Shown piece by piece: positions 1,313-63,983 of a stretch of DNA of 64,000 bases. The position numbers and the translations under genes were made by a program. The stretch is taken from the NCBI GenBank assembly GCA_038064415.1, contig JBBTTD010000005.1:2149-66148 (forward strand), given 5' to 3'. How positions within the stretch are numbered: position 1 is the first letter of the stretch; each line of letters begins with the position of its first letter. The notes under the pieces are model-generated. The model saw only the letters and a list, made by a program, of their open reading frames with translations. It ran no database searches and was not told the DNA's origin. Source of the DNA: Patescibacteria group bacterium (GTDB lineage Bacteria; Patescibacteriota; Minisyncoccia; Phycocordibacterales; PALSA-1337).

Positions 1313-4036
1313 CTATTCATATTGAGCAATGAATATATCAATTAGTTCAATTATTTGATTCTTTTGGTCAATTGATAATGATCCAGACTTTTGAATAATA
1401 ATTCTTTTCTTTAATCTTTCAGTATTATCAATCACTCTCTTGTAATCTCCATTTTTTACCAGACCCTCCAAACGATCAATCCTTCTGACTATGTCCTTGG
1501 AAAGTTTTGTCGTTCCAATAAGTTGAATAACGGTATTCTTGAGCGATTCCAAAAAAGTTATCGGATCAAGCGTTGATTCAGGATTGGCTACAATGTCCAC
1601 CGAACCATCTCCGTCCACATCTATCGTGAGCGCGGAAGTAGACGAGGCGATTTTCACTGGAATTGCCGTGCCAGAAGAATTACTCGTCACTGTACTTGAA
1701 GCGATCATCAGTGGCGTCGTCGGCAATGAACTATATTCCGCGCTATCCAATACTTCTCCGCCTTTAATCCTCTCCACTTGATAGGTAAACTCTCCAACAC
1801 CCACGCCACGAATGTTCACATTATATTTTTGGCCAGAATCATCGGGTAAAGTGACATAAGTTTCGTATTGATTTTCATCATCATAAATTCTAAAATTACT
1901 TCCAGGAATTTTCGTCTCATACATTGTATAAAGTCCCTCTTCCACATCTAATTCGAGCGAGGTCGGGGTTATGCCAGTATGATTGCCGTACTGGTCATAA
2001 ACATGAAGATCTACGGGAGAGTGTGTGCTCAAAACAAGGAAAGTGTCTTCTTTACTATAATCTGGTTCGCCGATAGTCACATTTGGTATCTTGGAAATTT
2101 CATTTTCAATTGCTTTATAGTCACGGTTTGGCGAATCAACACCGATAATATTTTGAATGGCGCTCTTAGTTGCCTGTGATTCTAAAATATTAGAGTGATT
2201 AATATTCTCGCGTTCCAAGTTGGATTCCGCCTTCAAGTCTATGGCGGTGGTAGTGCCAGAATTGAAAGTCGCGCTCGGAACAACCACCGTCCCGTCGCCA
2301 AATGAAGTCAAGCTGGAATTATATGATTTATTTGAATATATAATACCTTTGGTCGTATCTTTCCCCCATCCAACTATCGCCCATCGAGCAATATTTGTCG
2401 GCCAGACAAATGGATCAAGTATTCCATGAATAATTTCTGCGGCAGTCATCAATATAGAATTTGCCCGCGAACTTATAAATGAATTCTGCGCGACCGATGA
2501 ATCAATCGGGCTTGTGGTGGGACTAGTAGCTCCGCCCGCATAAGTGATTGTCGGGCTAAAAATTTTGGTAAAATATTTGGCTGAAGGCAGAAGCGAATAG
2601 GCACTGGCCATATTCAGACCCAATTCTTTGGCCACACTTTGTTTCAAAATAGCTCCATAACCAATGGATTGACTATCACCGTGTAACAAAGCCAATATCG
2701 CTTGCGGTGTCCCTAAATATGGAACTGCCACGGAAATTACAGAGTCAATCAGATTTTCTTTACCTAAATCTTGCAAGGTTTTAACTAAATATTTTGCAAC
2801 CAAACCACCATTGCTGTGCGCGATCAAAGTAACTTTTTTTGTTTTAGATCGCGAAGCCAGATCTTCAACGGTCTCAATCAGAGAATCAGTGGTCGTCGCT
2901 CGATTCTCACGCCCCGCAACCACCTCAACTATTGACTTACGCCAGTCATAGCCAAAGGACTTCCATTCTGAAATCGTCCCGTTTTCAGAGATACCATCCA
3001 GATAAGTCATAAATGACCTATATATGTCCACAATTCCTAGCGCCTTGTCTATTGGTCCGCCAGTATATATAGACGAATCGGTGCTGGATCCATTTGAGTC
3101 TAAAAACAATTTCCTAACATCGTCGTTTCGGTTTGGCTCCCAAAGCTGATTGATTGAAGATCCCATACCAAGCAGACCAGATTCTGGTCTATACAGACGA
3201 CTAGCCTCAAGACCTGGAATAAATAATATGCTTGAGCAACAAGCAGAGATGTCAGTTGAAAAATCCGGCTCTTTGATTAGCCAAGGATCATAGGAAATTG
3301 GACCAGACAAAATACTGGCGGTTGAGGAACTAACGCTTGAATAAATCGGACCATCTGGACTTCCCCACCAATTATTTTCGGCATTTATTGTATTTGAGCT
3401 GACATTCGCAATCGCGTATCTACCGTTATTTTTTATAATTGAATTTTTTATAAATAATGATGTCGGCGGTTTTCCCAAAGCGTCTTTCAGAATAATGACG
3501 CCATCATTGGCGTTGTTTTTTATTTGACTATCAACAATATCAACATCACTACTCCAGATATACAACCCCGCGCCGGTTGAATTTGAAAATGTTGAAGTGG
3601 CTATCTTGGCGTGTGACCAATACAAAATTAGACCCGGTCCATTAGTCGTCATGTCAGTATAAGCGACATCGGCGCTGCCATTATAAATATGAATCTTATC
3701 TATACCCCCTACTTTCACATGTTCATTAGTAGTACCGTTAATTTTAATAGTGCCATCAGTAACATAAACCGCGGTTGACATATTCAATCGTTCCGGAGCC
3801 AAACTAATCGTCACGCCCGACTCAATCGTTAGGGTATGTGGCCCATTTATAAATACATCTCCACTCAATATGTACGGACTGGCGCTCTTTGTCCAAGTTA
3901 CATCAGTATCAAATGTCCCGCTGATAATAGTCCCAGCTGGGACAGGTGTCTTCGCTTGAGCGATATTAATCATGCTTGTAAATGTCAAAAACCCAACTAC
4001 AAGACCAGAAAAAATAATATAAAATATGTTTTTCAT
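1313..4036 (-). CDS. Secreted multidomain protein: N-terminal right-handed beta-helix domain plus LCAT/PGAP1-like alpha/beta-hydrolase (putative phospholipase/lipase) domain
   Basis: 907-aa ORF with N-terminal signal peptide (MKNIFYIIFSGLVVGFLTFTSMINIAQA). Beta-helix-like repeats (GTFDTDVTWT...ILSGDVFING...IKNSIIKNNGRYAI). FGYDWR motif and nucleophile elbow LIAHSNGG of LCAT-like lipases, around nt 2600-3140. Confidence 0.7.
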   Translation of the reverse strand: MKNIFYIIFSGLVVGFLTFTSMINIAQAKTPVPAGTIISGTFDTDVTWTKSASPYILSGDVFINGPHTLTIESGVTISLAPERLNMSTAVYVTDGTIKINGTTNEHVKVGGIDKIHIYNGSADVAYTDMTTNGPGLILYWSHAKIATSTFSNSTGAGLYIWSSDVDIVDSQIKNNANDGVIILKDALGKPPTSLFIKNSIIKNNGRYAIANVSSNTINAENNWWGSPDGPIYSSVSSSTASILSGPISYDPWLIKEPDFSTDISACCSSILFIPGLEASRLYRPESGLLGMGSSINQLWEPNRNDDVRKLFLDSNGSSTDSSIYTGGPIDKALGIVDIYRSFMTYLDGISENGTISEWKSFGYDWRKSIVEVVAGRENRATTTDSLIETVEDLASRSKTKKVTLIAHSNGGLVAKYLVKTLQDLGKENLIDSVISVAVPYLGTPQAILALLHGDSQSIGYGAILKQSVAKELGLNMASAYSLLPSAKYFTKIFSPTITYAGGATSPTTSPIDSSVAQNSFISSRANSILMTAAEIIHGILDPFVWPTNIARWAIVGWGKDTTKGIIYSNKSYNSSLTSFGDGTVVVPSATFNSGTTTAIDLKAESNLERENINHSNILESQATKSAIQNIIGVDSPNRDYKAIENEISKIPNVTIGEPDYSKEDTFLVLSTHSPVDLHVYDQYGNHTGITPTSLELDVEEGLYTMYETKIPGSNFRIYDDENQYETYVTLPDDSGQKYNVNIRGVGVGEFTYQVERIKGGEVLDSAEYSSLPTTPLMIASSTVTSNSSGTAIPVKIASSTSALTIDVDGDGSVDIVANPESTLDPITFLESLKNTVIQLIGTTKLSKDIVRRIDRLEGLVKNGDYKRVIDNTERLKKRIIIQKSGSLSIDQKNQIIELIDIFIAQYE

Positions 4037-4083
4037 TGCATTAATCAGTTACGAATCTAATAATGCAATTAGCGTATCAGAGT

Positions 4084-4138
4084 GAAATCAAGAAATAATA
4101 AAGATTTGATCAAGATTTGATCAAGATTCTAAAATGTG
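4084..4138. promoter_or_regulatory. Copy 1 of repeated ~55-bp promoter/operator module (GAAATCAAGAAATRATAAAGATTTGATCAAGATTTGATCAAGATT)
   Basis: Near-identical copies at 4688-4742 and 17011-17068. Contains tandem 11-bp TTGATCAAGAT units. Minus-strand reading gives TTGATC-18nt-TATTAT pointing into the 907-aa gene; plus-strand reading gives TTGATC-18nt-TAAAAT. Confidence 0.45.
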
Positions 4139-4308
4139 TCAGAACTTGAGGTAGAGACCAGGTCTCCACCTTATACATTAAACCCAAACTTCCCAACTAA
4201 ATAAAGGAGAGTAAAACTACAAAGGAGAATGACCACAAACCCGATAAAGAACTTGAAAAAGCTTTTATCAAATGGGTTTATCATGGGGATATTATAACAC
4301 AATTTTTC

Positions 4309-4345
4309 CTTGACTTTAAGAATTATTTTGGTATTATATAACTAC
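4309..4345 (+). promoter_or_regulatory. Sigma70-like promoter (TTGACT-16/17nt-TATTAT) of a putative small RNA
   Basis: Consensus-like -35/-10 hexamers seen in the sequence. About 70 nt downstream is a strong plus-strand intrinsic terminator. Confidence 0.4.
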
Positions 4346-4412
4346 AACGAAGGTCTGTGACAAATCCACCTTATGGGGAGAGACTAGAAATAGTCTATCA
4401 GTAACCTTGACC

Positions 4413-4441
4413 ACCCACCTTATGGTGGGTGGTTTTGTCTA
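4413..4441 (+). terminator. Rho-independent terminator (CCACCCACC-TTAT-GGTGGGTGG followed by TTTTGT)
   Basis: Perfect 9-bp stem, 4-nt loop, U-tract on the plus strand only. Confidence 0.65.
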
Positions 4442-4669
4442 CGAATGAATATTTATGTTTTTCTTTATTATTAGATCAAATAATTTCGATATCAATTCTT
4501 GAGGATTGTCATTATATATTCTCACTACAGATTTCTCTATATTGATGATTTCATTTTGCACAATATTTTTATTGTGTATTTGTACATAAACAAGCGCAAA
4601 ACTGGAATGGGCGGAGGTTTTGTGTACACCCGATTCGTCTATATAGACAAAATGTTTTATTTTTTCCAT
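4439..4669 (-). CDS. Small ORF, possible DUF3800-like N-terminal fragment (FVYIDESG motif)
   Basis: 76-aa ORF in an AT-rich region directly downstream, on the minus strand, of module copy 2. YIDESG resembles the DUF3800 N-terminal motif but the ORF is far shorter than that family. Could be non-coding. Confidence 0.3.
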   Translation of the reverse strand: MEKIKHFVYIDESGVHKTSAHSSFALVYVQIHNKNIVQNEIINIEKSVVRIYNDNPQELISKLFDLIIKKNINIHS

Positions 4670-4687
4670 CTCTTTACCCTATCACCT

Positions 4688-4742
4688 CGAAATCAAGAAA
4701 TGATAAAGAAACGATCAAGATTTGATCAAGATTAAAAAATGT
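4688..4742. promoter_or_regulatory. Copy 2 of repeated promoter/operator module
   Basis: About 90% identical to copies at 4084 and 17011. Confidence 0.45.
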
Positions 4743-4796
4743 GGCGTATTCCCCCATGTCCTTAGCGAGGTCTCACATCGCTAATCAACCCAAAAC

Positions 4797-8644: not shown

Positions 8645-9195
8645 TTTGATTTTTATAATTTAACGCACCTTCCCCTATTTAATAATAAAGACGAGGGAAA
8701 TTAATGCGGTTTGTAAACTAATAATACTTTCCACATTTTCCGCATACGCTATCGACACGCAAACGAAAAATTTTGTGGCAATTTAGATATTAAATAATTG
8801 AACAAGAGAACGATTTAACAATCCAACGGTTAAATTAATAAAATTGAACTACTAAACAATTCAACTGATCAATCATCTAACATGATTGAACTTTTGACTA
8901 TCTATTATGTTGTCAAAGTTCGTTACTTGTCCGTTGTCGATTCTTTAAAATCGGTACGCGACTCCCACAACACTATCGAAATGTTCTGGGTACGAATGCA
9001 TAAATAAATTTACACACTCGTTACAAAACATTATACCCTACCAGTAGATAGCATTGCAAAACACTATGTGGATAACGGATCAAACCGTAAAAACTTACGA
9101 AAAATGGCTACATTTATTAACTTATAAGTAATATGGGTATGTTAGCTGTAATACGGCTCAAAGTCAAGGAAACCTTTCATTTTCGTGATTAACTT

Positions 9196-9221
9196 GTCAT
9201 TCCCGCGAAAACGGGAATGAC
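9196..9221. repeat. Palindromic hairpin element GTCATTCCCG-CGAAAA-CGGGAATGAC (family 2; second copy at 20602-20624)
   Basis: Perfect 10-bp inverted repeat, 3' of gene 9274-10065. No U-tract. Confidence 0.6.
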
Positions 9222-9273
9222 ACAACGATACCAAAGAAATGACTAACCCCGTGAAGCCCAGAAACAATTGGTC

Positions 9274-15481: not shown

Positions 15482-15685
15482 CTAACTCGCTACATATGGA
15501 AGCAATCCCATAAATCGCGCGCGCTTCACCGCCGTCGCCAGTTGACGCTGATACTTCGCGGCAATATTCGTGCGTTTCCTAGAAAGAACACGACCATGAG
15601 GATTGAGGAATTTTTTTAAAACTTCCGTATCCTTGTAATCAATATATTTAATGTTGTGCTGACCGAAATAACACTGCTTTTTCAT
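15482..15685 (-). CDS. rpsR: 30S ribosomal protein S18
   Basis: 67 aa. YIDYKD...LKKFL...RKRT...KYQRQLATAVKRARFMGLLPY is canonical S18. Confidence 0.9.
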   Translation of the reverse strand: MKKQCYFGQHNIKYIDYKDTEVLKKFLNPHGRVLSRKRTNIAAKYQRQLATAVKRARFMGLLPYVAS

Positions 15686-15748
15686 AATATTTTAATAACT
15701 TAATTATTTTGGTTAATTTTTTTCTCTACTCTTCGCTTATTTGCTTAA

Positions 15749-16228
15749 CTAAAATGGTATGTCGTCTGGATTAATTTCCTCACTTGGATAATCTATCTTG
15801 TCCGCTGGAGCTTCAGGCGCTTGACCACCTTTTGTCTCACTTTGACTGTCGCCGGTTTTGCTTGAATTAGAAGCTGATGATGACTGTCCCGCCCCAGCGC
15901 CGCTTGGTCGATTACCAAACTGGACTGCGTCGGCGATGATCTCCGTACGATACTTCTTCTCCCCATTTGCTTCCCAAGAACGAGTCTGTAGACGACCCTC
16001 AAGATAGACCTGCGAACCCTTTTTCATGTATTGAGCGACCAATTCTCCCGTTCGACCAAATGCTGAAATATTGTGAAATTCCGTGGTTTCCTGCCTATTA
16101 CCGTCTTTATCCTTGTAAACACGATTAGTAGCGACACCAAAACTACAAACTTTCGTGCCTGACGGCAAGGCCTTGAGTTCTGGATCTCTAGTGAGATTTC
16201 CTATGATAAATACTTTATTTAGGTACAT
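15749..16228 (-). CDS. ssb: Single-stranded DNA-binding protein
   Basis: OB-fold N-terminus (NKVFIIGNLTRDPEL), Gly/Ser-rich linker, acidic C-terminal tail ending DDIPF. Confidence 0.92.
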   Translation of the reverse strand: MYLNKVFIIGNLTRDPELKALPSGTKVCSFGVATNRVYKDKDGNRQETTEFHNISAFGRTGELVAQYMKKGSQVYLEGRLQTRSWEANGEKKYRTEIIADAVQFGNRPSGAGAGQSSSASNSSKTGDSQSETKGGQAPEAPADKIDYPSEEINPDDIPF

Positions 16229-16332
16229 TTGAGTTATAAAGTCAGAAAGTCCATAAAATCTGAAAGTAAATTGTTAGAGATTTTATGGTCTATTTGACTT
16301 GTGACTTGTTACTTTTAAACTTTCGACTTTTA

Positions 16333-16830
16333 TTATACCTCTTTGACCAGATCATCAATACTCTTGTCCATTTCTTCAATGGTCGCCGGAGCGACAATCT
16401 CCTTTTTATCTTCAGGAACAGTGCCAACTCCGGGAGTCGCGACAAATTCCGAAGAAATTATCAGAGCGGGCGCACGCTTGCCAAGATAGGTATTCTCACG
16501 AACAGTAGAAATGAGAAGTGTGCGTAAAACTGAAGGATGAAGCTCAATTGCTTTTTTCACATCTTCAATTTTATCTGAACCAAGCTCAAACTTGACCCAA
16601 CCAAAATGAGCGGAGTCATATTTCTCATATCCGCCTGATACCATTTTCTTGCTGATTGTATAAGCAAGTAGTTGGCGGTGCGGTATTTCTTCCGCGATGA
16701 CGGAAGATCCCGCATCGGTGATTATTTTTTTAATTGTCTCCGCTTCGGCTGGGACTTTTTCGTCCGGAACCGAGACAATGAGATAACCTATCTCATAGAC
16801 CGATTGGTCTTTATCAGTAGTATCTTTCAT
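16333..16830 (-). CDS. rpsF: 30S ribosomal protein S6 (with C-terminal extension)
   Basis: N-terminal YEIGYLIV...RQLLAYTI...GGYEKYDSAHFGWVKFE is S6-like. Classic rpsF-ssb-rpsR order. Confidence 0.85.
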   Translation of the reverse strand: MKDTTDKDQSVYEIGYLIVSVPDEKVPAEAETIKKIITDAGSSVIAEEIPHRQLLAYTISKKMVSGGYEKYDSAHFGWVKFELGSDKIEDVKKAIELHPSVLRTLLISTVRENTYLGKRAPALIISSEFVATPGVGTVPEDKKEIVAPATIEEMDKSIDDLVKEV

Positions 16831-17010
16831 TTGTTTTGCAGTCAGCGACCCTAGTGGAATGTTCCCTTCAGGACCTCTTGATAAGAGGGCTTACTGCGAT
16901 TACTTATAATATGATACGAGACTAACATGGAATTTACCTCTACGCAAGAGTATTGTATTCCTCGCAGGTTAGGAATGATATGTGGTGGAGGTGATTTGAA
17001 TATAACATCC
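16831..17010 (-). promoter_or_regulatory. Putative rpsF 5' leader (possible S6:S18 autoregulatory element)
   Basis: 180-bp ORF-free segment between module copy 3 and the rpsF start. Established knowledge of rpsF leaders; no motif verified. Confidence 0.25.
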
Positions 17011-17068
17011 CGAAATCAAGAAATGATAAAGATTTGATCAAGATTTGATCAAGATTGGAAAATGTTGT
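17011..17068. promoter_or_regulatory. Copy 3 of repeated promoter/operator module
   Basis: GAAATCAAGAAATGATAAAGATTTGATCAAGATTTGATCAAGATTGGAAAATGT. Minus-strand -35 TTGATC / -10 TATCAT points to the rpsF-ssb-rpsR operon. Confidence 0.45.
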
Positions 17069-17144: not shown

Positions 17145-17956
17145 TCACATGATAAAGAAGTTTCGTGTATTTTTTAATAATTGCGTAGATACCACCTCTT
17201 CCTTCTCGCCACGAATTTCAGCGATTTTTTTGACTACTTCAATGACATATAATGGTTCATTTCTTTTTCCGCGATATGGAATAGGAGCGACAAATGGGCA
17301 ATCGGTTTCTGACATAATATTAATCAGTGGCACGTTTTTTATTATTTCGTCATAATTTCGCGCGAAAGTTATTACACCACCAAATGACATGGAATTCCCC
17401 ATTTCTACGATATTTTTGGCATTTTCAATGGTTCCAGCGAAAAAGTGAAAATTAGCACGAACTTTGGCGCGCCTCTTTAAGATATCAATCACCTCTTGAT
17501 ATGCGTCTTGAGCGAGGTGAGACCTCGCTCATTCCTAACATGCAACATCAACGGTTTCCCGACTTTATTAGCCAAATCAATATGTTTTTCAAAAATTTCT
17601 CTTTGTTTTGGTATTTCCTCTGGTCTTGAATGAAAGTAATCAAGACCACATTCGCCAATTGCCACTACTTTTGGATTATTAGCTAATTGGTCCAGGACGG
17701 AAAAATCTCCTGAAATATCAACGACTTTCGCGTCTGTCGGATGAAAACCAACAATTGCCCAAACATTTCCGTGAGTTTCGGCCAATTCAACAACTTTTTT
17801 TGATGACTCAATATCCGTACCTACCGCAATAATTCCCACACCCGCTTCTTGGGCGCGTTTAATCACACCTTCACGATCTTTGTCGTAATCGGAAAAATTA
17901 ACATGGCCATGAATATCTATATATTTCAGTTGCTTTGACATGAAAAAATTGACCAT
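17145..17956 (-). pseudogene. tatD: TatD-family hydrolase, split into two frames by a 26-nt palindromic insertion
   Basis: ORF 17489-17956 ends ...LMLHVRNERGLTSLKTHIKR*. ORF 17145-17492 (GTG start, -1 frame) resumes IDILKRRAKVRANFHFFAGT...ETDCPFVAPIPYRGKRNEP. Deleting nt 17508-17533 (contains perfect palindrome TGAGCGAGGTGAGACCTCGCTCA) restores HVRDAYQEVIDILK, matching the TatD HxRDA consensus. Confidence 0.75.
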
Positions 17957-17964
17957 CGGATAAT

Positions 17965-19470
17965 CTACTTCCTCGCGAACAATGGCTGTACCGGGGTCTT
18001 TTTATCAATAATCAGTTTTTTAATAGTCTCTGAAGTATTTGGGAGAATCGGCGTCAAAAGATTCGCAATCAGCCACAACTCTTCCAATAAATACTTAACC
18101 GCTTTCTCCCCCTTTACTCTATTTTCTTTGATAAGTTTAAATGGGGCATTTTCAGCGATATATTTATCCGATTTCATAATTCTTTCCCAAATCTCATCAC
18201 AGACTTTATTGATTTCAAACCCAGCTAACTTTTTGTCAAATTCTACCCAATCAACTGGTCCTTTTGTATTTTTTTCTTGAATCTTAGATCTTGAATCTTG
18301 AATCTTTCCCGTATCAATCCACACCTCATTTGTTTCCGCCATCTTCAAAATACGACTGGTTAAATTTCCGATACCATTCGCAAGATGAGCGTTGTACCCT
18401 TCTTTGAATTTCTCCATTGTGAATGGACTATCTCCAAATGGACTCAGTCCACGCGCCACATAGTAACGCAAAGCATCTGTGCCATATTCTTTGACAATTT
18501 CCACAGGATCAACAGTATTACCTAGTGATTTAGACATTTTCAAACCGCCTTCACCTGTAATAAAGCCATTGATTACAATGGTATGAGATGGCGGTAATCC
18601 TGCGGCCATCAACATCGCTTGCCACATCGCCGACTGCTGGCGAAGGTTATCTTTGCCACAATATTGAACTACCCCACCAGTTTCCACCCACCATTTCTTA
18701 AAAGCGCCCGCAGACTTTTTGCCAGCAATTTCATCATCAGGCCAACCAACAGTAGAAACATAATTAATTAATGCGTCAAACCAAACATACATGACATGCG
18801 CAGAATCATTTGGCACAGGTATTCCCCACGGCATCTTGGTTGCCAAACGAGAAATGCTAAAATCTTCCAGACCTCGTCCCACGAAAACTTTAATTTCATT
18901 GAGTCGAAAGTCTGGAATCACAAATAACGGATTTTCCAGATACAAATCAAGTAACTGTTTTTGAAAAGCGCTGAATCTGAAGAAATAATTTTCTTCATCA
19001 ATCAAAATCAATTCAGTGGTCGGATGAATAAAACAATGCCCATTCTCTAGTTCAGTATCAGTTATTTCAAGTTCACATCCAGGGCAATATTTGGTTTTAT
19101 ATAATTTTTTATAAATAAACCCGTTTGCATCGCACCGACGCCAAAATTCTTGCGCCGCTTTAGTATGATGTCTATCGGTAGTTCGAATGAAATGAATATC
19201 ATCACTCAATCCGAGAACATCTTTGAGCTCTCTGAATTTGATAACATATCGATCAACAAATGCTTGGGTATCTTCATTAAAATGGAAAGCTTTCTGATAT
19301 ATTTTAACACCATGTTCATCCGTGCCAGTATTGAAAAATACCTCATGTCCCGCAAGTTTTTTGACCCGCGCGATAATGTCGGCGCGAATAATTTCCATGG
19401 CAAAACCAATGTGCGGTTCAGCGTTCACATATGGCAGAGTCGTCGTGATGTAAAAAGGTTTTTTGTTCAT
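17965..19470 (-). CDS. metG: Methionyl-tRNA synthetase
   Basis: 501 aa. HIGH-type motif (PHIGFAMEII), KMSKSLGN, CXXC zinc knuckle (CPGCELE). Confidence 0.92.
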   Translation of the reverse strand: MNKKPFYITTTLPYVNAEPHIGFAMEIIRADIIARVKKLAGHEVFFNTGTDEHGVKIYQKAFHFNEDTQAFVDRYVIKFRELKDVLGLSDDIHFIRTTDRHHTKAAQEFWRRCDANGFIYKKLYKTKYCPGCELEITDTELENGHCFIHPTTELILIDEENYFFRFSAFQKQLLDLYLENPLFVIPDFRLNEIKVFVGRGLEDFSISRLATKMPWGIPVPNDSAHVMYVWFDALINYVSTVGWPDDEIAGKKSAGAFKKWWVETGGVVQYCGKDNLRQQSAMWQAMLMAAGLPPSHTIVINGFITGEGGLKMSKSLGNTVDPVEIVKEYGTDALRYYVARGLSPFGDSPFTMEKFKEGYNAHLANGIGNLTSRILKMAETNEVWIDTGKIQDSRSKIQEKNTKGPVDWVEFDKKLAGFEINKVCDEIWERIMKSDKYIAENAPFKLIKENRVKGEKAVKYLLEELWLIANLLTPILPNTSETIKKLIIDKKTPVQPLFARK

Positions 19471-19480
19471 GCGGAATGGG

Positions 19481-20599
19481 CTAATTTTGAACAGAATTTT
19501 TAACCGCTTCCCTCTCGGCTATTTCAACTTTTTTATATTTCTCAATATCATGAATATATTCCATGAAAGCGGCCGAAAGGGGCACCGCGATCAACGCGCC
19601 AAGCACTCCGGCTAATTTTGCGCCGATTACCAGAGCCAAAATAACCACAATCGGCGATATGCCAACCACTTTTTTGACCACAAGCGGATAAAATAATTGG
19701 CTCTCAAATTGGTAAATAATAAGATAAAGACCAATTAAAAGAAAACCTGTGCCAATGCCATTTTCGGTGAATGCCACGAGAATCGCCGGAACTGACGCGA
19801 TCATTGGGCCAAAGACTGGGATAATTTCCAAAATTGCGGCGAATAAAGCGAGCAGTAACGCGTGTTTAATTCCGACTACCATAAGCACAAGGTATACGAG
19901 TACACCGACGACGATGCCGAGCAAAATCTGACCCTGAAGCCATAGGGCGATCTTACGCTGTGAGCGTTTCCATAAATCTATAATGTAGTTGTGATGTTTT
20001 ACCGGGGTGACTATTCGCAAGAAATCATCAACCCCATCTTCTTTAACTGCCAAATAAAATGACAAAACGATTATTAAAATCAATGACAAAAATCCTCCGA
20101 AAATAACACCCGCGGTCTTAAAGACTCCCCCGCCAGTACCCAAAATTAAATTCTGAAAACCTTTAACATATTCCGCGACCGAAATTGTTTGTCCGACCAC
20201 TGGTGGTGAATTTGAACTAAGACTAATACCAATATCACGAATCGGACTCCAAATGTCATCTAAAGATATAGTACTCGGTAGACCATTCAAAAAATCACTG
20301 GCTTCATTGAGCACTAGAGGCATAAAGAATACAACTATTCCAGCCAAGACCGTGGCAATGATAACATAGATTAAAATCACGCTGATGATTCGGTGTACTT
20401 TATGTCTCTTGAGACGACGAATTACTGGTTCAATAGCTGAAGCTAGGATGATCGCGGCCAAAACCACTAAAAGTACATCGGAAATATAGTAAGCGGCAAC
20501 CAATAATATGGCAAAAAGGAAAAATCTGACAATCGTTCCTGTATTGAGATTTATGTGAATATCTCGGGATAAGTCGGACATGGAATTATTGTAACGCAT
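19481..20599 (-). CDS. AI-2E family transporter (PerM/YhhT-like permease)
   Basis: 372 aa, 8 predicted TM helices, sequence pattern of UPF0118/AI-2E permeases. Confidence 0.8.
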   Translation of the reverse strand: MRYNNSMSDLSRDIHINLNTGTIVRFFLFAILLVAAYYISDVLLVVLAAIILASAIEPVIRRLKRHKVHRIISVILIYVIIATVLAGIVVFFMPLVLNEASDFLNGLPSTISLDDIWSPIRDIGISLSSNSPPVVGQTISVAEYVKGFQNLILGTGGGVFKTAGVIFGGFLSLILIIVLSFYLAVKEDGVDDFLRIVTPVKHHNYIIDLWKRSQRKIALWLQGQILLGIVVGVLVYLVLMVVGIKHALLLALFAAILEIIPVFGPMIASVPAILVAFTENGIGTGFLLIGLYLIIYQFESQLFYPLVVKKVVGISPIVVILALVIGAKLAGVLGALIAVPLSAAFMEYIHDIEKYKKVEIAEREAVKNSVQN

Positions 20600-20601
20600 T
20601 T

Positions 20602-20624
20602 GTCATTCCCGCGAAAGCGGGAAT
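20602..20624. repeat. Palindromic hairpin GTCATTCCCGC-GAAA-GCGGGAAT (family 2, GNRA-type loop)
   Basis: Same stem sequence as 9196-9221. Lies in the 45-bp gap between two minus-strand genes. Confidence 0.6.
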
Positions 20625-20644: not shown

Positions 20645-21913
20645 TCAAAATGAAAAATAACTCTTAAATCCTTCCCCGTCCTTAAACTTCCCCACCACCG
20701 CCATATTCAATCCTCCATTAATAAAAATTTCTCTGGCCAATTTTCGCACATCTTTTACCGTGACTTTTTCCACCTTTTTAATAATTTCTTCCGGCAACTC
20801 AATTTTCTTTTTCAAAATCTCCTGACCACCGCAAAATTCAGCGCGCGCTTCGGAAGTCTCAAGTTCCAGCATTGTGGTGCCAGCAATATAATCCTTGGCT
20901 TTTTTAAGCTCCGCCGCCGAAACCAGTTCATCTCTAAACTTTCTGCATTGCGCCAAAATTTCCTTGACGGCTTCTTCAACACGACTATTATCCACGCCCG
21001 CGGAAATAGTTAGAACTCCATGATCAGTAAATGGATCATGATTGGTTTTGACATAATAGCAAAGACCGAGCTCATCACGCATTCTGGTAAAGAGACGCGA
21101 GCTCATGCCTTTTCCTAGAATCGTGGACAAAACATGCATGACTGGTATCCTCTTATCTAAAATCGGAAAAGTCCTGACGCCGATAACTAGATGGGTCTGA
21201 TCTGTTTCTTTGAATTCAGTCTGAATTTTTGGCGCCTCTTGAGATTCTGTGACTTTGATCTTGTCACTCTTTTTGCCTGAATACATCTTTGCGTAAGCTC
21301 TTTTTATTTTCGCGATACAGTCTTTTTCATCAAATGAACCGGAAACTACAACTGTGGTGGCGCTACTGACATAATGTTGGTCGCGATAATCTACTAAAAC
21401 ATCACGAGTAAATGCTTTGACGTTTTTTTCCGTACCGGCAATAGACCACCCAGCGGGCTGATTTTCGTAGAGGACTTCCATGAATATTTCCTGAACTCTA
21501 GATTGCGGCATATCATTGTACATTCTGATTTCCTCAACAATCACTCCTTTTTCTTTTTCCATTTCTTTCGCCGGAAAAAGTGGGTTTAGATACATATCAG
21601 AAACAATATCTAAAATGGTATCCATATGGCGCGAATCGGCTTTAGCATAGTAGCCGGTATATTCATGGCCGGTAAAAGCGTTGTATTGGGCGCCGATGCT
21701 ATCTAACTCGCGGGAAATATCACCACTTTTAGGTCGTCTAGGAGTCCCCTTGAAAACCATGTGTTCCAAAAAATGTGAAATGCCATTGTTTTTTTTATTT
21801 TCATACTTTGATCCCGCTTCAACCATGACTAAAACAGTGACAGATGGGTTGTCTGTCATAGGAATCGTGATAATACGCAGACCATTCTTGAGAGTAGTTT
21901 TATTGAATCTCAT
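20645..21913 (-). CDS. M16-family zinc peptidase (insulinase-like)
   Basis: 422 aa. Inverted zinc motif HFLEH near the N-terminus; two-domain M16 architecture. Confidence 0.88.
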   Translation of the reverse strand: MRFNKTTLKNGLRIITIPMTDNPSVTVLVMVEAGSKYENKKNNGISHFLEHMVFKGTPRRPKSGDISRELDSIGAQYNAFTGHEYTGYYAKADSRHMDTILDIVSDMYLNPLFPAKEMEKEKGVIVEEIRMYNDMPQSRVQEIFMEVLYENQPAGWSIAGTEKNVKAFTRDVLVDYRDQHYVSSATTVVVSGSFDEKDCIAKIKRAYAKMYSGKKSDKIKVTESQEAPKIQTEFKETDQTHLVIGVRTFPILDKRIPVMHVLSTILGKGMSSRLFTRMRDELGLCYYVKTNHDPFTDHGVLTISAGVDNSRVEEAVKEILAQCRKFRDELVSAAELKKAKDYIAGTTMLELETSEARAEFCGGQEILKKKIELPEEIIKKVEKVTVKDVRKLAREIFINGGLNMAVVGKFKDGEGFKSYFSF

Positions 21914-31175: not shown

Positions 31176-32963
31176 CTACATCTTCTTCGGGACTTTTATC
31201 CCCAAAATCCACAACCCATTTGTCATCGTGGTCAAAAATGCTTGCGTCAAAGCCAATCTATACGAAGATTGAGGATCTTTCTCGTCAATAATAGTTTGAA
31301 CTGCATAATAATTATTGAAAGCTCCAGCCAGATTGACCAGATAGTTTGCCACCTGTTGAGGTGAATATTCTTCTCTGGCACGCTCTACAATATCTGGAAA
31401 TCTGAAAATCAATTTTTCCAATAATGTAACTTCGCTTGGTATGCTTTCATTTTGAATCTTGAATCTTGAATCTTGAATCCTTGCCTTTTCTAACACTGCC
31501 GCCGCCCTGACCGCCGAATATTGCAGATACGGTCCCGAATCTCCTTCAAATGAAATAGATTTAGTTGAATCAAAAATAACATCACCGCCGATTGATTGAC
31601 GGAGAATTGTGTATTTGATCGCGCCGATTGCCACAATGTCAGATATTTCATTTTTGTCCGTCAGACTCAATTCGCGAACGGCGATTTTTTTAGCCACCAA
31701 TTCGCGAATATCCTCAAGTAATGACTCTGCCGAAACAATATTACCTTTTCTGGACGACATCTTTCCTGAAGAAAAACGAAGAAGACCATGTGAAATGTGT
31801 TTGGTTTTCGTGAAAATGTTTTGATCAATTAATGAAAACGCTTTCAATAATACTTTGAAATAATCACCTTGTTCATTCGCCGTAACAATAATTGACCCGT
31901 CTAAATCCGGATATTTCTTGAACTTCTCAATATTGAGACCAATTTCTTTGGCTTCATAAGTTGGCAATCCTTGAGAGGTGATGAAAACACGCGTATGTAG
32001 ATCATAATCTTCACCTTTGAAAATTATAGCACCCTCGCTTTCGGTAAATACTCCCTTTTTAATAAATTCACGCACAACCTTTACACCATCGGTGGCGACT
32101 TCACTCTCAAAGAAAAACTGATCAAATTTCGTGCCAAGTCGCTCGTAAATCAAATCGAAATATTCCAAGCTCCATTTTCGACCCTGTTCATATATTTCAT
32201 TGATTTTGGGATCGGATTTCCCAAATATCTCCTTGTTAATCATGGCAATTTCCTTCTGCGCGGTAGCATCATCATCAAATTTTGCCCCATAAACATACAT
32301 TTCACCCAACCATTTTACTTTTTCGGTTACTGTCTTCTCTCCAATCCCTAGTCTCCAATTTTCAAATCCTTGTTTCTTCAGTATCGCCCAAATAGTTTTC
32401 GCCACATGCAATCCGACATCGCCTTGATAACAAGCACGAATGACATTACCGCCAGAAGATTGGATTAATCGTGAAATTGATTCACCAACCGCATTAGACA
32501 TCAAATGACCGATATGAAAAACCTTGAAAGGATTCGGGTCAGTATACTCAACCATTATTTTTTTACCAGAATCGGAATTATTCCAACCATACTCTTTCCC
32601 ATTTTTTGCAATCGTCACAACATTTTCTGCAAAAATTTTATCTTTGATTTTGAAATTTATGAATCCGGGACCGGCAATGGTGATTGATTGAACAAAATCC
32701 GGTTGTCCTTTTTTTAGTTCAACAATAATCAACTCCGCCATTTCTTTTGGATTTTTAGGAATTTTCGATTTTTCAATTACCCAAGAAATTTTCCCGATAT
32801 GAGAATCGACTAAACCTGCAAATTTTTTAAAGGTAACCATAGCCACATTACTGGAAAAATCTCCATGATCTGGATTTTCCGGATACTCTAAAGTAAAAGA
32901 TGTCTCGGTTATGCCGAGTCTATTTAGAGATTTGATTATTTGACCCTGAAGCTTTTCCTTCAT
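31176..32963 (-). CDS. argS: Arginyl-tRNA synthetase
   Basis: 595 aa. HIGH motif (FHIGHLMS) and C-terminal DALR anticodon-binding domain. Contains an in-frame (GATTCAA)x4 microsatellite at 31447-31478. Confidence 0.92.
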   Translation of the reverse strand: MKEKLQGQIIKSLNRLGITETSFTLEYPENPDHGDFSSNVAMVTFKKFAGLVDSHIGKISWVIEKSKIPKNPKEMAELIIVELKKGQPDFVQSITIAGPGFINFKIKDKIFAENVVTIAKNGKEYGWNNSDSGKKIMVEYTDPNPFKVFHIGHLMSNAVGESISRLIQSSGGNVIRACYQGDVGLHVAKTIWAILKKQGFENWRLGIGEKTVTEKVKWLGEMYVYGAKFDDDATAQKEIAMINKEIFGKSDPKINEIYEQGRKWSLEYFDLIYERLGTKFDQFFFESEVATDGVKVVREFIKKGVFTESEGAIIFKGEDYDLHTRVFITSQGLPTYEAKEIGLNIEKFKKYPDLDGSIIVTANEQGDYFKVLLKAFSLIDQNIFTKTKHISHGLLRFSSGKMSSRKGNIVSAESLLEDIRELVAKKIAVRELSLTDKNEISDIVAIGAIKYTILRQSIGGDVIFDSTKSISFEGDSGPYLQYSAVRAAAVLEKARIQDSRFKIQNESIPSEVTLLEKLIFRFPDIVERAREEYSPQQVANYLVNLAGAFNNYYAVQTIIDEKDPQSSYRLALTQAFLTTMTNGLWILGIKVPKKM

Positions 32964-43870: not shown

Positions 43871-44134
43871 TTATTTTTTTCTATATACATCTTTGCGGTG
43901 ACCTATAGTGATAAAAATTGCTTTTGATTCAGCCTCAAAATAAAATAAGGCTCTATATGAGCTTGTTATACGCAATGAAAAAGTTCCAGAATCTCCCGCT
44001 AATTTTTTTAAATGTAATCTTGAATCTTTTTGATGCTTCCTAAATCTGATTTCTTGTTTCCGAAACAGATTTTGAATCTTGGTCGGAAGTCTCTTGAACT
44101 CACGATAAAATTCATCAGTAAATTTTATAGTCAT
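43871..44134 (-). CDS. Type II toxin, RelE/ParE (YafQ/RelE-like) family
   Basis: 87 aa. LHLKKLAGDSGTFSLRITSSYRALFYF...IGHRKDVY signature. 4-nt overlap with the upstream antitoxin ORF. Confidence 0.8.
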   Translation of the reverse strand: MTIKFTDEFYREFKRLPTKIQNLFRKQEIRFRKHQKDSRLHLKKLAGDSGTFSLRITSSYRALFYFEAESKAIFITIGHRKDVYRKK

Positions 44135-44361
44135 AGAGTATCATGAACTCGTCCGACCTTCATGTCTCTATAACCTCGACGAATAGACTGTTTTAAAGAA
44201 ATAGGATTCTCATATTCATTTATATATTCAAGAGGTATTGTATCTGAAAGTGTGGTTAACACATGTCTAGAAAGTTCAACCAACGAAAGCCCGTATCGAC
44301 TTGCAATATGTGCCAGACGAGTTTTCTCTTTTTTAGGAAGTGTAATCGTAAGTGTAGTCAT
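44131..44361 (-). CDS. Type II antitoxin (RHH-like)
   Basis: 76 aa. Overlaps the toxin start (ATGA overlap). Confidence 0.6.
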   Translation of the reverse strand: MTTLTITLPKKEKTRLAHIASRYGLSLVELSRHVLTTLSDTIPLEYINEYENPISLKQSIRRGYRDMKVGRVHDTL

Positions 44362-62890: not shown

Positions 62891-63271
62891 TTAATTTTTT
62901 TGTCTATCCAGATAGCTCTGTAATATCAACGCCGCCGCTGACGCATCACTCATATTATTCTTACCTTGAAATCTTTCAGCTTGAACACTGGTCATAAATT
63001 CTAATTCCAAATAAACAATAAATCCGACCTTCTCTAATTCTTTTTTGAATTCATCGGCTTCTTCAAAAATAGCATTTGGTTGCTGTCTATAATTGCGCGA
63101 CTCTCCTATCACAATTTCTTTGACCTCGTGTTGTTTCGCGATCTCTATTATTTCTTTCACCGCCACATCACTATTTTGCACAACTACCAAAGGTAAAGCG
63201 AACTTGCGTGATTCGTCAGAGACCGCGACTCCGATTCGCTTTGTGCCGTAGTCTATTCCGAGAATTTTCAT
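62891..63271 (-). CDS. ruvX: Holliday-junction resolvase-like RuvX/YqgF
   Basis: 126 aa. MKILGIDYGTKRIGVAVSD N-terminus typical of YqgF/RuvX. Confidence 0.88.
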   Translation of the reverse strand: MKILGIDYGTKRIGVAVSDESRKFALPLVVVQNSDVAVKEIIEIAKQHEVKEIVIGESRNYRQQPNAIFEEADEFKKELEKVGFIVYLELEFMTSVQAERFQGKNNMSDASAAALILQSYLDRQKN

Positions 63272-63518: not shown

Positions 63519-63983
63519 ATGGCAAGTCAACCTCTGATTATTTGGAGCGCGCCGGAACATTTATATGTTGAAAAAAAGCCCGACTGGTATTGGGCTGTTG
63601 GAATTATCACGCTGGCATTAGCGGCAGTAGCTTTTATTTTTGGCAACATAATAACTGGAATATTCGTAGTCGTCGCCGCGATTGCGTTGGTTCTGCACGC
63701 CTCCAAACCACCACGAACAGTCAGCTACGAAATAAACGATCGTGGAATCGTGGCTGGTGATATTCTCTACCCTTTTCTTAGTCTAGAATCATTCTGGATA
63801 CCGCACGATGAGTTTCCGCCAAAACTAATCATCAAATCAAGAAAACTTTTCATGCCTTTTATTGTCATTTACATTGACGAGATAGATCCTGAACAAGTCA
63901 GAGAAGTCATGCTCACTTATATTGCCGAAACCGAACATCGCGAACCGCTTTTGAAACATGTTCTGGAAATGTTAGGATTTTAA
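63519..63983 (+). CDS. Hypothetical 2-TM membrane protein
   Basis: 154-aa ORF downstream of tRNA-Ser. Confidence 0.5.
   Translation: MASQPLIIWSAPEHLYVEKKPDWYWAVGIITLALAAVAFIFGNIITGIFVVVAAIALVLHASKPPRTVSYEINDRGIVAGDILYPFLSLESFWIPHDEFPPKLIIKSRKLFMPFIVIYIDEIDPEQVREVMLTYIAETEHREPLLKHVLEMLGF

Follow-up and report, generated by a model that had tools for sequence, protein, structure and literature searches.

A putative activator operator of tandem 11-bp repeats at extended −10 promoters of a Patescibacteria genome and its relatives

Introduction

What is the function of a ~55-bp sequence that recurs, nearly unchanged, ahead of unrelated genes in a Patescibacteria genome? The sequence lies in a 64-kb stretch of DNA, the whole of which is called the window here. 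The window has a GC content of 40.6%, and homologues of its proteins are labelled Parcubacteria, Paceibacterota, or Taylorbacteria. The window's rpsF product is identical to a protein annotated 'Patescibacteria group bacterium', and contigs from the 0.1-μm fraction of Hainich groundwater carry it. A sequence-only reading had proposed that the repeat is a promoter/operator with two palindromic cores and a sigma70-like promoter on each strand. To our knowledge, the regulation of genes has hardly been studied in the Candidate Phyla Radiation, and the organisms are largely uncultured. We found no descriptions of promoter or operator motifs for this group in the literature searched.

Results

A three-copy repeat

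A repeat finder returned a single three-copy family in the 64-kb window, at 4069–4138, 4674–4743, and 16997–17066. A search with the 22-nt core TTGATCAAGATTTGATCAAGAT matched only the loci of these copies in the window and gave no match in 100 shuffles, so that both searches bear out the three copies noticed earlier. Placed in register, the 55-nt copies occupy 4084–4138, 4689–4743, and 17012–17066; the coordinates first given hold for copy 1 and are off register by 1 nt for copies 2 and 3. Pairwise identities are 89%, 93%, and 89% over the 55 nt and 90.5–97.6% over the 42-nt array, which roughly agrees with the >90% first claimed. A scan of the 64 kb for four phased units found copies 1–3 only, and none in shuffled sequence. 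The three-copy repeat is non-random, with a chance expectation of none. A generic upstream element of every strong promoter was rejected, as the 64 kb have only three sites and other window promoters lack the units.

An exact 19-mer gave 14 scattered matches in reference genomes, which we judged unrelated or due to chance. Two loci in Melainabacteria/Obscuribacterales (L001, 2373–2391, and L008, 2215–2233) both carry GGATCAAGATTTGATCAAGAT beside the end of a conserved gene; these are probably unrelated to the array, having two units only and no extended −10 box. A scan of IMG/VR with a three-unit pattern matched nothing but simple tandem repeats of unrelated viruses, and a viral or mobile origin was set aside.

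Anatomy of the array and its promoter

Each copy consists of four head-to-tail units on the minus strand, and each unit is composed of an 8-bp core, TCTT(G/T)AT(C/T), and a 3-nt linker. A TGnTAnnnT box (extended −10) follows 6 nt downstream of unit 4 in all three copies. The layout on the minus strand is AATCTTGATC AAATCTTGATC (A/G)(A/T)(A/T)TCTTTAT(C/T) ATTTCTTGATT, then 6 nt, and then TGnTAnnnT. The elements of the three copies are as follows.

4086–4126, minus strand: copy 1 array of four unit cores (4126–4119, TCTTGATC; 4115–4108, TCTTGATC; 4104–4097, TCTTTATT; 4093–4086, TCTTGATT)
4127–4138, minus strand: copy 1 upstream flank CACATTTTAGAA, common to the three copies and part of the homogenised tract
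4071–4079, minus strand: copy 1 extended −10 box TGATACGCT, 6 nt past unit 4, with a predicted start at ~4064
4691–4731, minus strand: copy 2 array (cores TCTTGATC, TCTTGATC, TCTTTATC, TCTTGATT)
4676–4684, minus strand: copy 2 extended −10 box TGATAGGGT, followed 6 nt later by ATG at 4669
17014–17054, minus strand: copy 3 array (cores TCTTGATC, TCTTGATC, TCTTTATC, TCTTGATT)
16999–17007, minus strand: copy 3 extended −10 box TGTTATATT, with a predicted start at ~16992

With four units exactly 11 bp apart in each of three copies, the array exceeds the minimum of two head-to-tail units at a 10–11-bp period expected of an OmpR/PhoB-type operator. The linker after unit 2 is GTT in copy 2, not AAA. 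Similarity between copies stops ahead of the spacer and −10 box (tcactcTGATACGCT, tcgaggTGATAGGGT, and tcgggaTGTTATATT), yet the distance from array to box remains identical, which argues that the spacing is a functional constraint and not an artefact of copying.

The box has the form of an extended −10 element, with TGn directly before TAnnnT in TGATACGCT, TGATAGGGT, and TGTTATATT. Transcription would start ~7 nt downstream of it, and under this assignment the unit cores span ~−62 to −22. The −35 position of the array promoters reads ATCATT or ATTATT, with no −35 hexamer. The proximal core ends 9 nt before TAnnnT (6-nt spacer plus TGn), close to the ~10 bp of OmpR/PhoB-type operators (PMC1906773). 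TTGAC −35 boxes are present at other window promoters, which carry no units; the array is thus specific to a subset of promoters.

Many genes in the window have a TGnTAnnnT box that ends 6 nt ahead of the ATG (for example, 20645–21913, 31176–32963, 44131–44361, 62891–63271, and 63519–63983), a pattern that indicates leaderless mRNAs in this genome. Copy 2 fits this rule exactly, with TAGGGT, then aaagag, and then the ATG at 4669. The genome-wide rule and the fit of copy 2 identify the −10 element as the box 6 nt past unit 4, and not as the TAT(T/C)AT that had been proposed, which falls inside unit 3; the better candidate lies outside the interval first described and is conserved in position in ~20 promoters. 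The TTGATC taken earlier for a −35 element fares no better, as the cores are at least 20 nt from the TGnTAnnnT box. By the same leaderless signature, the 76-amino acid ORF downstream of copy 2 is predicted to be leaderless. Copy 2, many window genes, and most array promoters thus resemble extended −10 leaderless promoters, with TGnTAnnnT 6–8 nt before the start. Copies 1 and 3 differ in having leaders of ~28 nt and ~160 nt, respectively, and the array promoters differ in the added upstream array, which is absent from ordinary promoters of the window's genome.

Target genes in the window

All three copies lie upstream of minus-strand genes, namely those of an LCAT/β-helix protein, a 76-amino acid ORF, and the rpsF-ssb-rpsR operon.

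1313–4036, minus strand: target gene 1, a 907-amino acid protein with an LCAT-type α/β-hydrolase (lipase) domain
4037–4064, minus strand: predicted short 5′ UTR of the LCAT-like gene, with a TGCATTA...TAATGCA hairpin beside the AUG
4439–4669, minus strand: target gene 2, a 76-amino acid ORF with a weak match to the DUF3800 N-terminus (E = 0.008)
15482–16830, minus strand: target operon 3, with rpsF (16333–16830), ssb (15749–16228), and rpsR (15482–15685)
16831–16992, minus strand: predicted structured rpsF leader of ~160 nt, with compensatory changes in 10 of 24 predicted pairs

Target gene 1 is annotated by NCBI (MAG) as a right-handed parallel β-helix repeat protein. The hairpin in its 5′ UTR is kept in four of five species, with no covariation. 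The rpsF leader is conserved in five genomes and has no match to an Rfam family; it may be a lineage-specific S6:S18 autoregulatory leader.

The neighbourhoods of the copies have further features. TatD (17145–17956, minus strand) is split in the window into two overlapping ORFs of 155 and 115 amino acids, and a strain variant (L016) is broken differently. In relatives, TatD is one gene encoding 258–282 amino acids, and the window TatD is a frameshift or pseudogene. Between copies 1 and 2, the DUF3800-II RNA family RF02961 matches at 4344–4412 on the plus strand (39.6 bits, E = 1.6e-5, just under the gathering score of 43.2), within a small RNA gene (4310–4432, plus strand) that has a near-consensus promoter (TTGACT-16-TATTAT, 4310–4337) and a terminator (4415–4432). 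This RF02961-like gene is convergent with the 76-amino acid ORF, whose weak DUF3800 match fits the known association of the RNA with DUF3800. An unannotated hydrophobic small ORF of 37 amino acids (MINPFDKSFFKFFIGF...; 4171–4284, minus strand) lies directly upstream of copy 1. It is kept in L026, L163, L164, and L165, has its own extended −10 box 5–9 nt before the ATG in each case, and is probably leaderless.

Arrays at orthologous and other promoters in related genomes

Synteny around rpsF is kept in relatives, whose RpsF proteins are 68–76% identical. Their TatD-rpsF spacers carry the same layout as the window copies (L020, L022, and L024; weaker in L026), as in the L020 rpsF promoter, AAAACTTCATC AAATCTTTATC ACTTTTTTATC TGTTCTTTATC tcgagc TGATACACT. 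A further rpsF promoter with an array, in L046, was found independently by pattern scan. Orthologous rpsF promoters thus have the array in four other genomes (L020, L022, L024, and L046) and a weaker version in a fifth (L026). Orthologous LCAT-like promoters have it in L026, L163, L164, and L165, where the extended −10 box is TGATACGCT, TGATATGGT, or TGGTAGGCT; the box at the promoters in L164 and L165 is identical to that of copy 1. The LCAT-like proteins of L163–L165, which were fetched as homologues, are 52–66% identical.

The search for the module and the catalogue of downstream genes that had been suggested, here covering the window and metagenome contigs, led to array promoters beyond the three copies. 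A scan of metagenomes with a three-unit pattern returned mostly simple repeats, plus ~13 further array promoters, one of them on a contig with a protein assigned by NCBI to Ca. Taylorbacteria. Beyond the rpsF and LCAT-like loci, about ten array promoters lie on Parcubacteria-type contigs. Array promoters elsewhere usually have four or six units (three in two cases), a 6–7 nt spacer, and an extended −10 box, with the ATG mostly 6–8 nt after the box. The position of the −10 box relative to the array is kept across ~20 promoters. A position frequency matrix has the core TCTTNATC kept across genomes and the linkers varying (AAA, ATT, GTT, AGA, and ACT); in other genomes, the conserved 8-bp core is joined by GTT, AGA, GGA, or ACT. 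Where the window has TTGATC, the relatives have TTCATC or TTTATC. The conserved features, judged from these alignments, are the direct repeat, the 11-bp period, the orientation, and the distance to the −10 box.

The proposed role as promoter/operator of the three minus-strand genes is upheld as a prediction, with the array and extended −10 box upstream of each. A shared regulon, also proposed earlier, is the best reading of the same array type at orthologous rpsF and LCAT-like promoters of related species. The conserved core of targets consists of rpsF-ssb-rpsR and the secreted LCAT-like lipase. The variable targets are MazF/PemK-like proteins, a 134-amino acid family, a Bro-N protein, a ComM-like protein, and the 76-amino acid DUF3800-like ORF. 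A fourth copy precedes a leaderless 134-amino acid gene on another contig (L050/L162), which we judged from neighbouring NCBI accessions to belong to the same assembly as the window.

The 134-amino acid protein belongs to a family of ~120–135 amino acids with the signature CPAFGGE...HLxRKG...KHFFSV, comprising 807 clusters at 50% identity. Members are encoded at L162 (10001–10405), L055 (2231–2629 and 3912–4310), L056, and L166 (41–400), and all five genes examined are leaderless with an array just upstream. The family has no match in Pfam, NCBIfam, or PADLOC, and a Foldseek comparison of its AlphaFold model, predicted at very high confidence (pLDDT 96), with the PDB gave no significant match. 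In the window's genome, a five-gene island (L162, 9550–14140) splits the ribosomal-protein cluster between rplE and rpsN-rpsH, and contains the array-driven 134-amino acid gene, a 109-amino acid ORF, and genes for a DUF5667 protein, an ECF sigma factor, and an fn3 protein. In a contig from a peat metagenome (L055, 1–10435), three array-driven leaderless small genes, two of the 134-amino acid family and one MazF-like, are inserted among the pilin genes of a type IV pilus cluster.

Homogenisation of arrays within genomes

Array sequences are closer within a genome than between the orthologous loci of different genomes. Over 61 nt, the window array copies are 77–85% identical, and the rpsF array of L022 and the LCAT array of L164, which are on the same contig, are 89% identical, with the same linkers and the same degenerate CAGT unit. 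Between genomes, arrays are 57–66% identical. This likeness within genomes points to concerted evolution, through gene conversion or through tight co-evolution with a factor. The near-identity of linkers and degenerate units within a genome exceeds what factor binding alone would need. Independent Logan contigs (L017–L019, at position 1, and L166, at position 1) break off exactly within the array. Short-read contigs repeatedly stop there, as they would at any dispersed repeat.

Discussion

Proposed mechanism and known analogues

We consider it probable, by analogy with known operators, that the array is a Pho-box-like activator array that substitutes for the −35 element and is bound by a lineage-specific factor, most likely of the OmpR/PhoB winged-helix type. 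Each copy would form the upstream half of a minus-strand promoter, with four units (~−62 to −22, core TCTT-N-ATC), a 6-nt spacer, and an extended −10 box. Dimers of the factor would line up head to tail along one face of the helix, two of them per four units; the even unit numbers and alternating linkers (e.g., GTT/AGA) fit such 22-bp dimer sites. At the promoter-proximal unit, the factor would contact RNA polymerase and so replace the missing −35 element. The array would co-regulate rpsF-ssb-rpsR, the secreted LCAT-like lipase, the leaderless 76-amino acid DUF3800-like ORF, and the leaderless 134-amino acid gene on the other contig. The repeat anatomy, its strand, its fixed distance to the −10 box, and its conservation at orthologous promoters are observed; protein binding, activation, and the regulator family are what we infer, and the mechanism is modelled on PhoB, SphR, and PhoP at Pho boxes and on HP1043/HsrA in H. 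pylori.

In PhoB and SphR boxes, 8 bp are followed by an A/T-rich linker of 3 bp; those of PhoB are placed 10 bp ahead of the −10 element, and SphR requires at least three repeats (PMC1906773). Streptomyces PhoP binds cooperatively to 11-nt direct-repeat units, up to six per operator (PMC2275107). Pho boxes (PhoB of E. coli, SphR of Synechocystis, PhoP of Streptomyces and Bacillus) and the arrays share 11-bp head-to-tail repeats with an 8-bp core and 3-bp linker, 2–6 units per operator, and a fixed orientation relative to transcription (PMC1906773, PMC2275107). In both, the proximal unit ends ~9–10 bp upstream of the −10 element, in place of a −35 element. By our own comparison, the core TCTTNATC resembles the Synechocystis CTTAACCT and the Streptomyces GTTCAY in the central TT-N-A or TTCA. 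The core sequence is, however, not the same, and unlike typical Pho boxes, arrays within a genome are nearly identical, including their linkers. The targets also differ, as they include rpsF-ssb-rpsR and toxin-like genes. The ~20 genes linked to arrays include no pst, pho, or phosphatase gene, and the core is unlike the published CTGTCAT or CTTAACCT as a whole; the targets catalogued here thus give no support to a Pho regulon in particular.

A second analogue is the essential orphan OmpR-like regulator HP1043 (HsrA) of H. pylori, whose targets include ribosomal-protein genes. The promoters it acts on have direct repeats at an 11-bp distance, no −35 element, and in some cases an extended TG (PMC5253667). 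The arrays are similar in having a −10 without a −35 element, 11-bp direct repeats, and ribosomal or housekeeping targets, in a small genome with few regulators. HP1043 sites differ in consisting of two TTTAAG hexamers, bound by one dimer, whereas the arrays have 4–6 units and another core.

The annotated stretches of the window and the surroundings of the arrays showed no gene for an OmpR-type regulator. The regulatory genes seen in annotated neighbourhoods are those of HTH_17, CsoR, an ECF sigma factor, a histidine kinase (L162), and a stand-alone receiver domain (L055). None of these is array-linked, and a regulator encoded nearby was therefore set aside. The target set is heterogeneous (ribosomal proteins, SSB, lipase, MazF/PemK-like, 134-amino acid family, Bro-N, and ComM-like) and suggests no single physiological signal. 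The boxes of CtsR, Fur, DnaA, and MraZ were likewise set aside, because their periods or cores do not fit the units of relatives.

Alternative explanations

The main rival to an activator array is a repressor operator, along whose 4–6 units a factor would polymerise, occluding or locking polymerase at a self-sufficient extended −10 promoter and silencing toxin-like genes among others. Extended −10 promoters work without a −35 element or an activator, so the array promoters would need neither, and the proximal unit reaches ~−22, near the footprint of polymerase. Several array-linked genes are, moreover, solitary MazF/PemK-like or toxin-like genes, which would need tight silencing. Nevertheless, we regard repression as rather unlikely. 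The fixed distance of 6–7 nt, which argues for activation over repression, is kept with the orientation in ~20 promoters, as is typical of activator-polymerase contact and unneeded for occlusion. The core targets include rpsF-ssb-rpsR, which is presumably highly expressed, and no array promoter has a −35 element, though TTGAC boxes exist elsewhere in the genome. A protein might also be dispensed with altogether, if phased A/T tracts formed curved DNA or a UP-like element to which polymerase is drawn directly. In the window copies, the units are phased at 11 bp and joined by A/T-rich linkers (AAA, ATT), as would suit such an element. In other genomes, however, the linkers are GTT, AGA, GGA, and ACT, without A-tracts, and it is the C- and G-containing core TCTTNATC that is conserved instead. 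A UP element is contacted in the minor groove, at A/T-rich sequence between −40 and −60, whereas the 8-bp cores reach −22, and we give a factor-independent element very little weight.

The sequence-only reading pictured two TTGATCAA operators binding a dimer, with TTGATC as a −35 element 18 nt from TAT(T/C)AT or NAAAAT, to form a bidirectional and possibly methylation-sensitive promoter. TTGATCAA is indeed a perfect palindrome and occurs twice, 11 bp apart, in copies 1 and 3, and a consensus scan matches at 9 of 12 positions on both strands. These matches are nonetheless weak, with an 18-nt spacer, and copy 2 has a single TTGATCAA, its first core being ACGATCAA. The cores of relatives, TCTTCATC or TCTTTATC, are without dyad symmetry, and the feature kept is the 11-bp direct repeat. 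With TTCATC or TTTATC, the relatives lose the palindrome, the GATC, and the likeness to a −35 element, yet keep the array and TGnTAnnnT; the palindrome and GATC are therefore peculiar to the window's genome. The suggested methylation sensitivity does not generalise, as GATC is absent from most units of relatives, and the window has about as many GATC sites as expected (240 vs. ~231). The plus-strand promoter is weak: copy 2 has lost its −35 element (ACGATC), the −10 element begins variously with T, A, or G, and the plus-strand sequence downstream is not conserved. We therefore hold this palindromic promoter to be most improbable. Small RNAs from the plus strand (TTGATC-18-TAAAAT plus a downstream hairpin) were also considered and rejected, as the hairpin past copy 2 is the terminator of a 355-amino acid minus-strand gene, downstream sequence is not conserved, and no Rfam match adjoins any copy.

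The array might alternatively be a homogenised or propagated cassette, a master promoter copied or gene-converted between loci whose positions are not each needed by a regulator. Highly similar upstream regions before non-homologous genes of one genome have been described as putative mobile promoters (Matus-Garcia et al. 2012, PMC3488235), and the similar upstream regions before non-homologous window genes match this description. Arrays within genomes are closer than those between genomes, by the identities given above, and also occur before accessory genes (MazF-like, Bro-N, and the 134-amino acid family in the ribosomal-cluster island). The arrays differ from mobile promoters in lying at orthologous loci of several species and in lacking mobile-element features; neither a transposase nor terminal inverted repeats nor target duplications accompany them. 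With arrays at rpsF and at the LCAT-like gene in at least five genomes each, their presence there is ancestral and not due to recent insertion, and the 8-bp core is kept across genomes while linkers drift, a signature of protein recognition. Homogenisation, moreover, accounts for likeness and not for function, and so complements the factor model. A cassette as the whole explanation is thus improbable. The mobile cassette suggested earlier is unlikely as a recent insertion and survives as within-genome homogenisation, and the arrays are best read, from their distribution, as an old regulon motif that has been homogenised, not as one mobilised recently.

Significance

Tandem direct-repeat activator operators are a known kind of element, of which the array is most likely a new, putative member. 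The array is a defined cis-element whose core regulon, rpsF-ssb-rpsR with the secreted LCAT-like lipase, is conserved, and it could be used as bait to identify the regulator; in so little-known a group, such regulatory handles are rare. The promoters described here provide a model for one Parcubacteria clade, with an extended −10 box, frequent leaderless mRNAs, and an optional TTGAC −35 element. The concerted evolution of the array offers a clear case of promoter homogenisation in a very small genome, and the array's tendency to break short-read assemblies matters for the binning and finishing of these genomes.

More speculatively, Parcubacteria may have a master regulon, whose ~45-bp activator array is kept near-identical by gene conversion at unlinked promoters of each genome and diverges in concert between species. 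The array might then also act as a plug-in module that wires recently gained accessory genes, most of them leaderless (MazF-like toxins, the 134-amino acid family, Bro-N, and DUF3800), to the regulator of rpsF-ssb-rpsR and the lipase. We think this scenario doubtful; if it is true, the supply of ribosomes and SSB would, like lipid scavenging and growth-arrest toxins, be tied to one signal in host-dependent cells.

Other features of the window

A 630-nt non-coding region (8645–9273, minus strand) lies upstream of a 636-amino acid PG_binding gene and has long blocks kept in five genomes, including GTTATCCACA (DnaA-box-like), TGTAACGAGTGTGTAA, and GCGTGTCGATAGCG. The region has no Rfam match and no GC-skew switch. 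Repeats with an 8-bp period, (CTTGAATC)n, occur within the coding sequences of metG and argS (18270–18315 and 31445–31490), encoding KIQDSRSKIQEK in MetRS and RIQDSRFKIQNE in ArgRS. ACGT is strongly depleted in the window (21 sites) and TCGA is low (66), with GATC as expected (240 vs. ~231); the scarcity of ACGT and TCGA suggests restriction avoidance. A hairpin, GTCATTCCCGCGAAA(A/G)CGGGAATGAC, is repeated in two intergenic regions (9179–9218 and 20585–20624), and one copy of it abuts the start codon of the gene at 19481–20599.
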